64,000 bases of DNA from Pseudomonadota bacterium (GTDB lineage: Bacteria; Campylobacterota; Campylobacteria; Campylobacterales; Sulfurimonadaceae): the NCBI GenBank assembly GCA_043797085.1, contig JAZDQA010000006.1, positions 32,001 through 96,000 on the forward strand, read 5' to 3'. Below the pieces are notes generated by a model that worked only from the letters and a program-made list of their open reading frames with translations, had not been told where the DNA came from and searched no databases. Numbering within the stretch: position 1 is the stretch's first letter; every line of letters begins with the position of its first letter. A program made the position numbers and the translations under genes. Shown piece after piece: positions 46,230-50,131 of the stretch.

Positions 46230-47189
46230 ATGTCTCTTTTAGAACATGTAGATGGAGCCACAAATCTGGCAAAAAATAATGAAGTACAACTTCTGATCTT
46301 TAAAGTAGATGCTGCCGAAACATCTGCTTATTACGCCATTAACGTTTTTAAAACACGAGAAGTTGTAGAGGCCAAACATCATCAGTTAACCCTTATCCCC
46401 TCTCCTCATCCATTACTGGAAGGAACCATCGTCTTACGCGGTCTTCAAATCCCCATTCTTAATCTTCCAAAATGGCTGGGATCTGAGCTATCACCTGAAA
46501 AGAAAAAACTTTCCAATCTTTTGATATGTGATTTTAATGGCATTATTATCGGTATACGTATCATGTTTGCCTACCGTGTTATCAAGAAAAACTGGAATGA
46601 GATGCATGCACCCGATAGCTATCGTCTTGGCGAAGACGGATTGGTTATTAACGATACAAGACTCGATGATGGAAGTTTGTGCTTGGTACTCGATTATGAA
46701 AAATTACTCGCAGATGTCATTCCCCAAGCAATGGTCAATGTTTCAGAATCACCTAATAATTTAGCCAATATTGTGATTCCGGATAAGTTAAGAAACGGAA
46801 CCGTTTTAATTGCCGAAGATTCTAAAACTGCCCAACGTCATCTACGTCAGGTTTTTGCAAATGCTCATCTCTCCTATCAAATTTTTAACAATGGTAAAGA
46901 ATTGATAGATTTTGTCAATGCGCATCCAAACCCTTCTTCCATTCCCGCTATCATTACGGATATTGAGATGCCGGAAATGTCAGGTTTTACCGTTGTCCGC
47001 CTTTTAAAAGCGAATGCCGCAACGAAATCTATCCCCATTATCGTCAACAGTTCAATGACAGGTGAAAATAACAAACGAGAAGCAGCAGGATTAGGGGCAG
47101 ATGGGTTTATTGATAAGACAAAGAGTCACGATATCATTCCGCTGATTGTCAGTAAGATGGAAAGTGCTAGACAATTGCAGCTAGCATAA
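46230..47189 (+). CDS. cheV: Chemotaxis protein CheV
   Basis: CheW domain ('YAINVFKTREVV') plus a receiver domain ('AEDS', 'TDIEMPEMSG'). Confidence 0.93.
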   Translation: MSLLEHVDGATNLAKNNEVQLLIFKVDAAETSAYYAINVFKTREVVEAKHHQLTLIPSPHPLLEGTIVLRGLQIPILNLPKWLGSELSPEKKKLSNLLICDFNGIIIGIRIMFAYRVIKKNWNEMHAPDSYRLGEDGLVINDTRLDDGSLCLVLDYEKLLADVIPQAMVNVSESPNNLANIVIPDKLRNGTVLIAEDSKTAQRHLRQVFANAHLSYQIFNNGKELIDFVNAHPNPSSIPAIITDIEMPEMSGFTVVRLLKANAATKSIPIIVNSSMTGENNKREAAGLGADGFIDKTKSHDIIPLIVSKMESARQLQLA

Positions 47190-47194
47190 AAGTT

Positions 47195-47223
47195 CGTCAT
47201 ACTGTATCAGGTACGGTATGACG
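47195..47223. repeat. CGTCAT-type REP-like palindrome between convergent cheV and the carboxylase gene
   Basis: cgtcatactgta-tcagg-tacggtatgacg. Confidence 0.65.
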
Positions 47224-47234
47224 GGGATATAATT

Positions 47235-49064
47235 TTAGTCTACGACTGCGAGAATTTGACCAGCTTCAACTTTATCATTTACTTGTACCATAACTGCACT
47301 CAAAACACCTGAACGCGGTGCTAAAACATCAATTTCCATTTTCATTGCTTCAAGAATCATAATCTTATCGCCGGCAATGATTGGAGCACCTACTTGAGCC
47401 AAAAGTTTAAACACAGAACCCGGAAGTTCTGAACGAATAGCGTTTTCATTAGCAACAGGCGCTGCTACTACGGGAGCTGCAACTGGTGCTGCAACCGCTA
47501 CTGGTGCCGCTACTGATTGAACATTTGCATTGCCATCTACGATTTGTACGTTGTATTGTTGTCCGTCTACGATTACCGTGTAAGTACCATTTGCCATTGT
47601 GAAATTCTCCTGTTTTAGTGTTGATTGAATTGATTGAGCTGTATCAGCCGTTTTTGGGCTGTTTTTTCGAACATTTACGGTTGCTTCCCCTTTTAGGAAT
47701 GCAATCCCTTTAATATCACACGAAGCAGCGATAAAAATATTTTCATCACTGGCTTCGATTCCTTCATTTTCTAACTGCGCAGTCCAGTACGCAATTGATT
47801 TTTTCTCATCACGGTCCGCAATATCGATAGCATTATCGGTTGTCGGCTCTAATTTTAACTGTTCTGCTGCAATACGGATAACTTCAGCATCCGGCGTCGT
47901 TGGTGTTTTACCAAAATAGCCCAATACCATCTTACCGTAACCCGGAGCTATTTTTTTCCATGGTCCCATAAGAGCATTGTTAAGCGCCTGTTGGAAATAA
48001 AACTGAGACACTGGAGTAACGGATGTACCGTATCCCCCTTTTTCAACCACTTCACGCATTGCACGAATGACTTCAGGATAACGATCCAACATGTTGTTAT
48101 CACGCATCATTTGAGTATTTGCTGTCAATGCACCGCCTGGCATTGGAGAAAATGGAATTAAAGGTGAAACTTGTGTTGCTTCAGGCGGGATGAAATAATC
48201 TTTCAAACAATCGCCCAATACATCTTCGTATTGCAAGATTTTTTCAAGCTCTAAACCGCCAAGATCAAAATTCTTACCCTTGACTGCATGCAGCATTGTC
48301 AGAATATCCGGCTGAGATGTACCACCGCTGACCGGAGAGGCTGCCATATCAATACCATCAATACCTGCATCAAGCGCTGCCATATAACACGCAACGCTCA
48401 CACCCGCAGTTTCATGCGTATGAAGACGTAAATGCGTCCCCTCAGGAACAAGACGACGTGCCATTTGAATGGTTTCATACACTTTCTGAGGGCTTGATGT
48501 TCCGCTGGCATCTTTGAAACAAATCGAGCTGTAAGGGATACCCGAATCTAAAATCTCTCGAAGCGTTTTTTCGTAAAATGCAACATCATGAGCACCCACA
48601 CATCCTGGAGGAAGGTCCATCATGGTCACAACAACTTCGTGCTTCAAACCATGATGAACAATACGTTCACCAGAATATTTCAAATTTTCAACATCGTTCA
48701 GAGCATCGAAATTTCGAATGGTCGTTGTTCCGTGCTTTTTAAACATCTTGGCGTGCAAATCAACCATCTCACGGCTGCCCGTATCTAGCATAACCGTATT
48801 AACACCGCGAGCAAGCGTTTGGAGGTTAGCATCCGGACCTACGATAGCACGGAACTGATCCATCATATCAAACGCATTTTCATTTAGATAGAAAAAAAGA
48901 CTTTGAAAGCGTGCTCCGCCTCCAAATTCAAAATGGGTAATTCCCGCATGAGCCGCAGCTTCAACTGCCGGAAAAAAATCATTCATCAGTACGCGTCCGC
49001 CAAATACGGATTGAAATCCGTCACGGAAGGTTGTATCCATTATGTCGATATATTTTTTTGCCAT
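47235..49064 (-). CDS. Pyruvate carboxylase subunit B / oxaloacetate decarboxylase alpha (carboxyltransferase + biotin carrier)
   Basis: Motifs 'DTTFRDGFQS', 'FKDASG', 'HTH', 'MPGG' and 'VTPVSQ', an Ala/Pro/Val linker and the biotinylation motif 'EAMKME'. Confidence 0.92.
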   Translation of the reverse strand: MAKKYIDIMDTTFRDGFQSVFGGRVLMNDFFPAVEAAAHAGITHFEFGGGARFQSLFFYLNENAFDMMDQFRAIVGPDANLQTLARGVNTVMLDTGSREMVDLHAKMFKKHGTTTIRNFDALNDVENLKYSGERIVHHGLKHEVVVTMMDLPPGCVGAHDVAFYEKTLREILDSGIPYSSICFKDASGTSSPQKVYETIQMARRLVPEGTHLRLHTHETAGVSVACYMAALDAGIDGIDMAASPVSGGTSQPDILTMLHAVKGKNFDLGGLELEKILQYEDVLGDCLKDYFIPPEATQVSPLIPFSPMPGGALTANTQMMRDNNMLDRYPEVIRAMREVVEKGGYGTSVTPVSQFYFQQALNNALMGPWKKIAPGYGKMVLGYFGKTPTTPDAEVIRIAAEQLKLEPTTDNAIDIADRDEKKSIAYWTAQLENEGIEASDENIFIAASCDIKGIAFLKGEATVNVRKNSPKTADTAQSIQSTLKQENFTMANGTYTVIVDGQQYNVQIVDGNANVQSVAAPVAVAAPVAAPVVAAPVANENAIRSELPGSVFKLLAQVGAPIIAGDKIMILEAMKMEIDVLAPRSGVLSAVMVQVNDKVEAGQILAVVD

Positions 49065-49084
49065 AATCCCTACTTTTAGTTTTA

Positions 49085-49158
49085 TTTATACGCTAAAGAA
49101 ATTCATCCCTTTGGCTACGCTAACCGCTAGGGTTACTAAAGTCAGCCTCTTTCAAGGC
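49085..49158 (-). repeat. ~75-bp structured intergenic element, copy 2
   Basis: Minus strand gccttgaaagaggctgactttagtaaccctagcggttagcgtagccaaagggatgaatttctttagcgtataaat aligns with 40808-40880. Confidence 0.75.
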
Positions 49159-49168
49159 ATAAATCTTC

Positions 49169-49453
49169 TTATTTGGAAGATTTATTATGATGATGGATTG
49201 CTGCAACGAGGGAAGCAAGCCCAGCTAAACCATTATTCTGACCTGAATTTTCAAGTTCATGATGATGAAGTGCTACAGCGATAGCAGCAACTCTTGCCCT
49301 AACATCATCGTTCTCTAATGAATGATGATGCAGTGCAGCAGCAATCGCAGCTACTCTTGCACCCTCATTATTAGGAATACATACTTGTAATTCTGAGAGG
49401 TTTTTAGGCTTCGACTTCGTAAAATATTTCATTACTTTATCTAGTAATTCCAC
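49169..49453 (-). CDS. OadG-like small protein with three AAxHHH repeats and no TM anchor
   Basis: GAGGA RBS and GTG start. Motifs ARVAAIAAALHHH, ARVAAIAVALHHH and LVAAIHHH; occupies the usual oadG position upstream of the alpha subunit. Confidence 0.75.
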   Translation of the reverse strand: MELLDKVMKYFTKSKPKNLSELQVCIPNNEGARVAAIAAALHHHSLENDDVRARVAAIAVALHHHELENSGQNNGLAGLASLVAAIHHHNKSSK

Positions 49454-49609
49454 GTCTATATTCCTCTACTGATATTTTGACAACGCAACACGTTAGTGTG
49501 ATTTTAGTATAAAGTTCATTAAAATTAATTTACTGCACCGTTTCAATATAGCTCAAAGATAATTTTGTTACAATCCGCACCAATAAAATAATAACAAAGA
49601 GGTACGCAA

Positions 49610-50131
49610 ATGGATCTTAGTAAAATCGGATATGGCGAAAACCCGGATAAAGTTAAAGCAATTATAGAGATTGCCTGCGGATCAAACATCAAATATGAAG
49701 TAGAAAAAGAAAGCGGTGCATTAGTCCTTGACCGTGTCATGCACTCAGCAATGTATTATCCGGCAAACTACGGTTTTGTCAATAAAACACTTTCCCAAGA
49801 CGGTGATCCGGCGGACATTTTGATCCTTACTGAATATCCTATGGTTGAGGGATGTGTAACCAACTGCCGTTTAGTCGGTGTTTTGATCATGGAAGACGAA
49901 AGCGGTATTGATGAAAAACTGCTTGCGGTTCCTACCTCAAAAATTGATCCTACATTCGAAGAGATCCAAGATCTTGGAGATATTCCAAAACATACCTTGG
50001 CAAAAATCAAAAACTTTTTCGAAACTTATAAAATGCTAGAGCCAAATAAATGGGTAAAAGTAAAAGGGTTTGAAGACAAAGCATCCGCAACTAAAATTCT
50101 CGAAGATGCAATTGCTGCATACAAAGAATAA
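49610..50131 (+). CDS. ppa: Inorganic pyrophosphatase (family I)
   Basis: Motifs 'KYEVEK', 'YPANYG', 'DGDPAD' and 'FFETYK'. Confidence 0.96.
   Translation: MDLSKIGYGENPDKVKAIIEIACGSNIKYEVEKESGALVLDRVMHSAMYYPANYGFVNKTLSQDGDPADILILTEYPMVEGCVTNCRLVGVLIMEDESGIDEKLLAVPTSKIDPTFEEIQDLGDIPKHTLAKIKNFFETYKMLEPNKWVKVKGFEDKASATKILEDAIAAYKE

Follow-up and report, generated by a model that had tools for sequence, protein, structure and literature searches.

A soluble, multi-helix paralog of the oxaloacetate decarboxylase gamma subunit OadG in the main Sulfuricurvum clade

The window analysed here is a stretch of 64,000 nt of contig JAZDQA010000006.1 (contig 6) from assembly GCA_043797085.1, a genome of the family Sulfurimonadaceae designated G000. 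It carries a small open reading frame (ORF) directly upstream of a gene for a biotin-carrying subunit of the OadA/PycB type (alpha). OadG is the small membrane-anchored gamma subunit of Na+-pumping oxaloacetate decarboxylase, and the 94-aa product of the ORF, named G* here, is a soluble OadG paralog. Alpha is followed by a convergent cheV-type gene with CheW and receiver domains, and oadB is absent from the locus, as an earlier interpretation of this DNA from its letters and ORFs (the sequence-only reading) had stated. The features of the locus are listed in Table 1.

The G* protein contains the three HHH motifs previously read from it, at residues 42-44, 63-65, and 87-89, each closing an Ala-rich stretch. 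The third helix motif is a Gly/Leu-rich variant that is invariably the last. The DNA duplication with a 63-bp period, claimed for the first two motifs, was recovered as two 61-nt segments (49248-49308 and 49311-49371) with 74% identity and a spacing of 63, although Tandem Repeats Finder listed no array on 49100-49520. In addition, a three-copy family of 32 nt starts at 49187, 49259, and 49322, with 78% and 72% identity to the reference copy. The absence of an N-terminal hydrophobic helix was confirmed by hydropathy analysis: the best 19-residue Kyte-Doolittle mean was 0.75, versus 2.1-3.0 in 48 canonical OadG proteins of relatives. The N-terminal helix of G* is strongly amphipathic, with a hydrophobic moment of 0.67, and was placed by AlphaFold2 (AF2) at residues 2-13 with low confidence. 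The three Ala-rich helices have low hydrophobic moments (0.09-0.23) and expose small hydrophobic residues on all sides. The AF2 model of G* alone reached a mean predicted local distance difference test (pLDDT) value of 56.9 and is good for helix positions only.

In profile searches with G*, the C-terminal part of the gamma family was matched, with scores under the cut-offs: 18.7 bits for Pfam OAD_gamma (PF04277, cut-off 27; profile positions 27-75 of 76) and 28.7 bits for TIGR01195 (cut-off 36.05; C-terminal part of the model only). The NF002792 score was 13.6 bits at a cut-off of 93. A sequence search of the PDB with G* returned only chance-level matches (designed leucine-rich repeats and a regulator), and in the ESM Atlas only its own cluster of 60 members was found, 28% of them with PF04277.

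The start of G* is sound, since the homologous position is ATG in 11 and GTG in 12 of 23 orthologues. The TAAAAT hexamer earlier proposed as a -10 element is no evidence for a promoter, because the promoter scan found promoter-like hexamers no more commonly than in shuffles (7 versus 6.8 expected). The ratio of nonsynonymous to synonymous substitution rates (dN/dS), calculated for the same 23 orthologues using 180 of 253 pairs (dS 0.15-2.5), was 0.17 over the whole gene; by segment, it was lowest in the helix region (0.10), higher in the N-terminal helix (0.28), and highest in the linker (0.96). Variation was highest at third codon positions (0.34), followed by first (0.14) and second (0.11) positions. 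G* is thus a real gene. In a groundwater metatranscriptome, one contig of 719 nt covers positions 48888-49581, including the alpha start, the spacer, and all of G*, with no mismatch, and offers weak support for expression. Two contigs of run X1 both stop at 49581, with adapter letters beyond, within the intergenic region from which G* and the pyrophosphatase gene diverge; such contigs cannot reveal transcript ends. Runs X2, X6, and X8 contain relatives, mostly at 90-95% identity and in pieces, and are uninformative on this strain; where they leave stretches of the region uncovered, the gaps carry no weight. A low-depth metatranscriptome contig of a relative skips 49075-49181, around the spacer between G* and alpha.

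Table 1. Positions of the genes, protein segments, and sequence signals at the G*-alpha locus (window coordinates)
Feature	Position	Strand	Basis or remark
G*, 94-aa soluble OadG paralog, GTG start	49169..49453	-	ORF listing
Ribosome-binding-like AGAGGA, 8 nt ahead of GTG	49462..49467 (49467-49462)	-	Read from the sequence; putative
Amphipathic N-terminal helix, residues 1-13, left over from the second half of the membrane helix of OadG	49415..49453	-	
Helix motif 1, residues 30-44, HHH at end	49322..49366	-	AF2 helix 30-44
Helix motif 2, residues 51-65, HHH at end, 63-nt repeat of motif 1	49259..49303	-	AF2 helix 51-68
Helix motif 3, residues 75-89, HHH at end	49187..49231	-	AF2 helix 75-92
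Alpha subunit, OadA/PycB type, 609 aa: carboxyltransferase, association hairpin, and biotin carrier	47235..49064	-	
Biotinyl-lysine codon, K575 in AMKME (residues 573-577)	47340..47342	-	
Association-domain beta-hairpin of alpha, residues 493-508, presumed docking site for Ala-rich helices	47541..47588	-	AF2
Terminator-like hairpin of 15 pairs between the converging ends of alpha and cheV	47193..47225	.	
Convergent cheV-type gene (CheW and receiver), in place of the oadB of relatives	46230..47189	+	
Divergent inorganic pyrophosphatase gene, conserved left neighbour	49610..50131	+	Adjoins the locus in G118 too

The comparison drew on 66 genomes of the genus, identified as Sulfuricurvum from the database names of close homologues, on 121 family genomes, and on 60 fetched alpha loci from 23 genera, each taken with 2.5 kb downstream of alpha. 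Alpha was found in 117 of the 121 family genomes, as a rule once per genome, with 49-93% identity across the aligned portion, or about 65-93% where the match was nearly full-length. The conservation of the small ORF, on which its interpretation depended, was clear: G* was present in 44 of the 66 genus genomes (E 3.6e-7 or better), and its frame was open in 43 of them, with a TGA in the remaining one (G017). In most database records, the small protein is labelled hypothetical; a three-helix homologue from a cultured Sulfuricurvum is listed by NCBI as Sulku_1609. A HMMER scan of 1.84 billion representatives with a soluble-G* profile retrieved only 14 proteins at E 0.001 or better; the soluble form is restricted to this lineage and close relatives.

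At 48 of the 60 loci, the gene upstream of alpha encodes a membrane-anchored OadG with one tail helix, separated from alpha by 2-12 nt and at some loci by up to 38 nt. An anchored OadG with two tail helices (G123) and an anchored one with a different N-terminus (G077) were found at one locus each. No OadG-type ORF was detected upstream of alpha at two loci (G098 and G105), both from genomes that have lost oadG and oadB. The remaining eight loci, from seven Sulfuricurvum genomes and G055 (five helices), encode a soluble protein with several helices. Wherever the anchored OadG has the usual N-terminus (49 loci: 48 one-helix and one two-helix), oadB lies within 2.5 kb downstream; it was missing from that interval at the other 11 loci, all eight soluble ones included. 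Helix number per homologue ranges from two to five and is usually three: among 100 homologues, 84 had three helices and no anchor, 12 had two (a class set by pattern, in which two or three members are undercounted), one had four, one had five, and one had an anchor plus two.

Several variants of this arrangement were observed. The soluble proteins of L040 (G055) and P0093, from a sister genus-level lineage likewise without oadB, are about 150 aa long and have five helices in the order A-B-A-A-B. Anchored OadG proteins with two tail helices (L082 of G123, L093 of G118, and P0099) indicate that helix duplication occurs without anchor loss too. One genus that lacks oadB retains a single tail helix in the ORF ahead of alpha (L074 of G077 and L094 of G060), preceded by an N-terminal hydrophobic segment unlike the usual one and by a long linker rich in Ser and Thr. 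In G212, from another family, oadG has decayed into two short ORFs upstream of alpha (a broken membrane helix and a degenerate tail; L112), and another gene follows alpha; the PycA-type carboxylase of this genome (L126) ends in an Ala-rich helix closer to the OadG tail than the ends of other PycA proteins. Family and genus searches revealed no alpha and no oadB match in G003, G089, and G107, nor any PycA match in G003. With completeness of about 99% for G003 and G089 and 80% for G107, these strains may obtain oxaloacetate by another route.

In the alpha tree, the loci with the soluble form made one clade of nine rows, including this window (Shimodaira-Hasegawa-like approximate likelihood ratio test, SH-aLRT, 100), sister to three Sulfuricurvum genomes with a canonical oadGAB operon. 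The metagenomic intermediate P0097 links the two protein forms. It aligns to the canonical OadG of the basal clade from residue 18 on, across both the proline-rich linker and tail helix 1 (z 24.5 versus shuffles), and its first 14 residues align to the conserved G* N-terminus (z 5.9). Through P0097, the N-terminal helix of G* aligns to residues ~18-35 of canonical OadG, and the soluble protein therefore corresponds to OadG minus the first half of its membrane helix. G* thus has a single origin, in the main Sulfuricurvum clade, where a canonical OadG lost the first ~17 residues of its membrane helix. What remained of that helix became the amphipathic N-terminal helix, and the C-terminal Ala-rich, His-capped helix was multiplied after the anchor loss. 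The break-up of the oadG-oadA-oadB operon falls on this branch as well: oadA remained beside G*, and a second, anchored oadG moved off with oadB, the pair being lost later in most species. In the oadB tree, the relocated oadB groups with basal Sulfuricurvum oadB (seven rows, SH-aLRT 100), which indicates that the pair was moved and not imported; acquisition of oadG-oadB from outside was rejected on this tree. The series of ancestral forms, P0097, purifying selection, and the single-clade distribution bear out the earlier proposal of a gamma-derived protein that lost its membrane helix and multiplied its alpha-binding helix.

The large gene of this locus, which was earlier headed biotin carboxylase/decarboxylase, encodes no biotin carboxylase but a carboxyltransferase and biotin carboxyl carrier protein (CT-BCCP) subunit and is the sole PYC_OADA gene of this genome. 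Its domains were all detected above the cut-offs: an HMGL-like TIM barrel (32.1 bits), PYC_OADA (99.8 bits), and Biotin_lipoyl (51 bits). The NCBIfam equivalog scores were far under the cut-offs (TIGR01108, 286.4 versus 756.5; NF006761, 274.9 versus 402; NF010645, 173.2 versus 1182); this alpha lineage is a divergent one, common to Campylobacterales. The closest solved relative is 5ks8_C (E 7.7e-48), the beta subunit of the two-subunit pyruvate carboxylase of Methylobacillus flagellatus (MfPC). In the AF2 model, the alpha hairpin consists of strands 493-499 and 502-508 with a local pLDDT of about 50, lying between the catalytic and biotinyl domains; its presumed docking role is taken from the accounts in PMC7274780 and PMC5059739. 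Clade-specific residue changes directly after the hairpin map to the branch on which G* originated. G* and alpha are separated by a spacer (49065-49168) of 104 nt here and in three close relatives (L010, L011, and L013), and by 5-14 nt in most other relatives.

The partner genes lie elsewhere in the genome. A single oadB was detected on contig 9 (508.5 bits), and directly upstream of it an 83-aa anchored OadG is encoded, which has a membrane helix, scores 63.4 bits with PF04277, and has 6iva_B, the gamma chain of Salmonella, as a solved homologue (E 6.6e-8). This canonical oadG-oadB pair, at 59083-60694 of contig 9 (6084-7695 of locus L002), has no adjoining alpha gene. The tail of the contig-9 OadG has lost its His cluster, which is retained in the same relocated pair of G111, G021, and G147. 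The search for pycA and accC, suggested earlier, identified two biotin carboxylases, an accB-linked AccC on contig 13 and a lone 489-aa PycA-type protein on contig 12. The latter has a C-terminal extension of ~40 residues that is absent from the contig-13 AccC; an extension beyond the biotin carboxylase domain is described as a mark of PycA-type subunits in PMC5059739. The pycA-type gene and alpha are on different contigs and hence lack the adjacency used as a criterion in PMC13147460.

The sequence-only reading suggested that the Na+ pump might be replaced and counted a full oadG-oadB pair elsewhere, partnering this alpha, against itself. For this genome, replacement does not hold, because the complete canonical pair is present on contig 9. 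The idea fits the relatives better, since this genome retains both the pair and a PycA-type carboxylase, and oadB is missing altogether from 35 of the 44 G* genomes. In total, oadB was found in 22 of the 66 genus genomes. Nine of the 44 G* genomes contain it as well, on another contig or far away, and in seven of these nine a weak anchored-OadG match lies just upstream of oadB (read directly in four). The other 13 oadB genomes of the genus lack G*, and in 12 of them the spacing fits oadG-oadA-oadB. A PycA-type carboxylase was identified in 71 of the 121 family genomes, among them every oadB-lacking genome with a near-complete alpha gene, and was not found, at the threshold used, in several genera with oadGAB. 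According to this distribution, the same alpha serves the pump, an ATP-driven carboxylase, or both across the family. In G000, where the pump half survives, G* and the anchored OadG therefore probably share alpha.

Four known systems were compared with the G*-alpha pair. OadG (PF04277, TIGR01195; Salmonella 6iva_B) has the same Ala-rich helix with a His cluster (6iva_B ends ...IAAAIHHHHRLN) and the same gene position directly upstream of alpha, and G* descends directly from it via the basal Sulfuricurvum genes and P0097. In contrast to OadG, G* has no membrane helix, has three tail helices instead of one, and is never in an operon with oadB; here cheV follows alpha and oadB lies on contig 9. 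According to PMC7274780, alpha is bound through its association domain by a predicted helix within the cytoplasmic tail of OadG and no longer co-purifies with beta-gamma once this helix is deleted. The same paper, citing Balsera et al. (2011), states that the tail on its own associates with alpha at a 1:2 ratio and favours tetramers of alpha and that up to six alpha subunits could sit on beta3-gamma3. It reports no structure of the full oxaloacetate decarboxylase complex. In MfPC, the carboxylase subunit ends in an all-hydrophobic alanine helix, which is enclosed by beta-sheets of two CT-BCCP subunits, at one helix per two subunits, and is essential for the holoenzyme (PMC5059739). This short, almost wholly hydrophobic, Ala-rich helix resembles those of G*, and the CT-BCCP subunit is the closest solved relative of alpha. 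However, the MfPC helix occurs once per chain at the end of the carboxylase, whereas G* is a separate small protein with three helices, and the PycA of this genome has an amphipathic C-terminal helix instead.

The tetramerization (PT) domain of single-chain pyruvate carboxylases likewise has one helix on a small beta-sheet after the carboxyltransferase domain, an arrangement that the OadG tail and the association domain of alpha have together been proposed to imitate (Balsera et al. 2011, via PMC7274780). In the G*-alpha pair, by contrast, helix and sheet are on separate polypeptides, and the helix is repeated. The PycA/PycB enzyme of Campylobacter jejuni (Cj1037c and Cj0933c; PMC4178425) has an orthologous alpha, with about 71% identity in genomes of genus g12, and an unlinked PycA-type carboxylase, but no G-type gene upstream of alpha. 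For reductive tricarboxylic acid (TCA) Campylobacterota, a reverse-running pump has been proposed as carboxylase in PMC13147460; the main text of that paper does not mention Sulfuricurvum, and its supplement of co-located genes may include the genus. Full-text literature searches, with subscription journals outside their coverage, retrieved no description of a soluble or repeated OadG.

From these data, we propose that G* is a cytoplasmic OadG paralog that docks alpha and ties alpha dimers into a soluble, PycA-driven pyruvate carboxylase, and we assign this reading a probability of about 0.55. By analogy with the OadG tail and the MfPC carboxylase helix, each G* helix would dock on the association hairpin of alpha. 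Docking is suggested by the character of the helices, their AF2 positions, the alpha hairpin, and the residue changes after it on the G* branch. One G* chain may then tie several alpha dimers into a soluble cytoplasmic assembly, which together with the PycA-type biotin carboxylase would form an ATP-driven pyruvate carboxylase. A transcarboxylase-type complex, also considered earlier, was dropped, as the PycA-type carboxylase is the obvious partner; no search for a 12S-type partner was made. A complex prediction for two copies of alpha residues 436-520 with G*, run with alignments and without controls, gave a score of 0.02 (mark 0.32) and weighs neither for nor against docking.

Several observations weigh against this proposal. 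No G-type gene was found upstream of alpha at the 11 Campylobacter-type loci (L113-L123), which come from genomes with both alpha and PycA and where another gene follows alpha, and the family genomes G098 and G105 retain alpha without oadG and oadB; the pyruvate carboxylase mode thus does not depend on the helix in general. With or without G*, PycA carries an amphipathic C-terminal helix of its own, which may fill the same site. With helix number varying from two to five, a fixed stoichiometry cannot be derived. In the AF2 model, alpha has a two-stranded hairpin of low confidence, versus four strands in MfPC. As for expression, the contigs of the RNA libraries span the whole region, including its intergenic parts, and may derive from carried-over DNA. 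Since the helices are not a general requirement, yet were kept and multiplied in this clade, a clade-specific role is called for.

The main rival is that G* acts as a decoy or partitioning factor, which binds alpha and keeps it off the membrane-bound OadG-OadB without building any larger complex, so that the cell is switched from Na+-coupled (de)carboxylation to the ATP-driven PycA route. The origin of G* on the very branch where oadA parted from oadG-oadB fits such a role, as do the nine genomes that still have both systems and the anchored OadG tail without a His cluster in G000, though the cluster is kept in three other such genomes. Nevertheless, a decoy should decay after loss of the pump, as oadG did in G212, and it fails to explain the purifying selection on G* given the 35 G* genomes without oadB, since genomes of this kind were the source of most of the 23 orthologues used for dN/dS. 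We consider this explanation unlikely, although it is the strongest of the alternatives.

The nine His residues of G* within 94 residues, in three invariant or nearly invariant clusters, could alternatively point to a metal-binding peptide for Zn or Ni storage or delivery that adjoins alpha by chance. The His cluster of OadG was linked to Zn in older work. However, conservation spans the entire Ala-rich helix and not the His residues alone, some canonical OadG tails of the family have no His at all (L063 and L070), the linkage to alpha is tight in most relatives, and G* descends from an alpha-binding subunit, which makes the metal peptide improbable. A non-functional oadG remnant left after the break-up of the operon, already disfavoured, is the least credible reading: the profile scores under family cut-offs, the lost membrane helix, and the neutrally evolving linker would agree with it, but the frame is open in nearly all genus genomes with a match, the helix region is strongly constrained, helices were gained rather than lost, and the true remnant in G212 looks quite different.

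A stronger form of the proposed assembly role, which we regard as doubtful, would make G* an obligatory third subunit: each helix would nucleate a barrel to which two alpha subunits contribute their association hairpins, and one chain would gather three alpha dimers for PycA. If so, a protein of 94 residues would stand in for the trimeric beta3-gamma3 membrane platform, the gamma tail and not the membrane would set the quaternary structure of this enzyme class, and helix number would tune the size of the complex.

The way in which the gamma tail organises alpha is still unsettled for the oxaloacetate decarboxylase pump. The Sulfuricurvum clade presents a natural dissection of this question, in which the tail occurs without the membrane, in multiple copies, and under selection, mostly in genomes without the pump and with alpha and a PycA-type carboxylase. 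Two questions are thereby made testable: whether the tail alone drives the oligomerisation of alpha, and whether one alpha can serve both the Na+-coupled and the ATP-coupled oxaloacetate routes in reductive-TCA autotrophs. The finding also carries a warning for annotation, as it is the set of partners in the genome that makes an alpha gene of this family "OadA" or "PycB".

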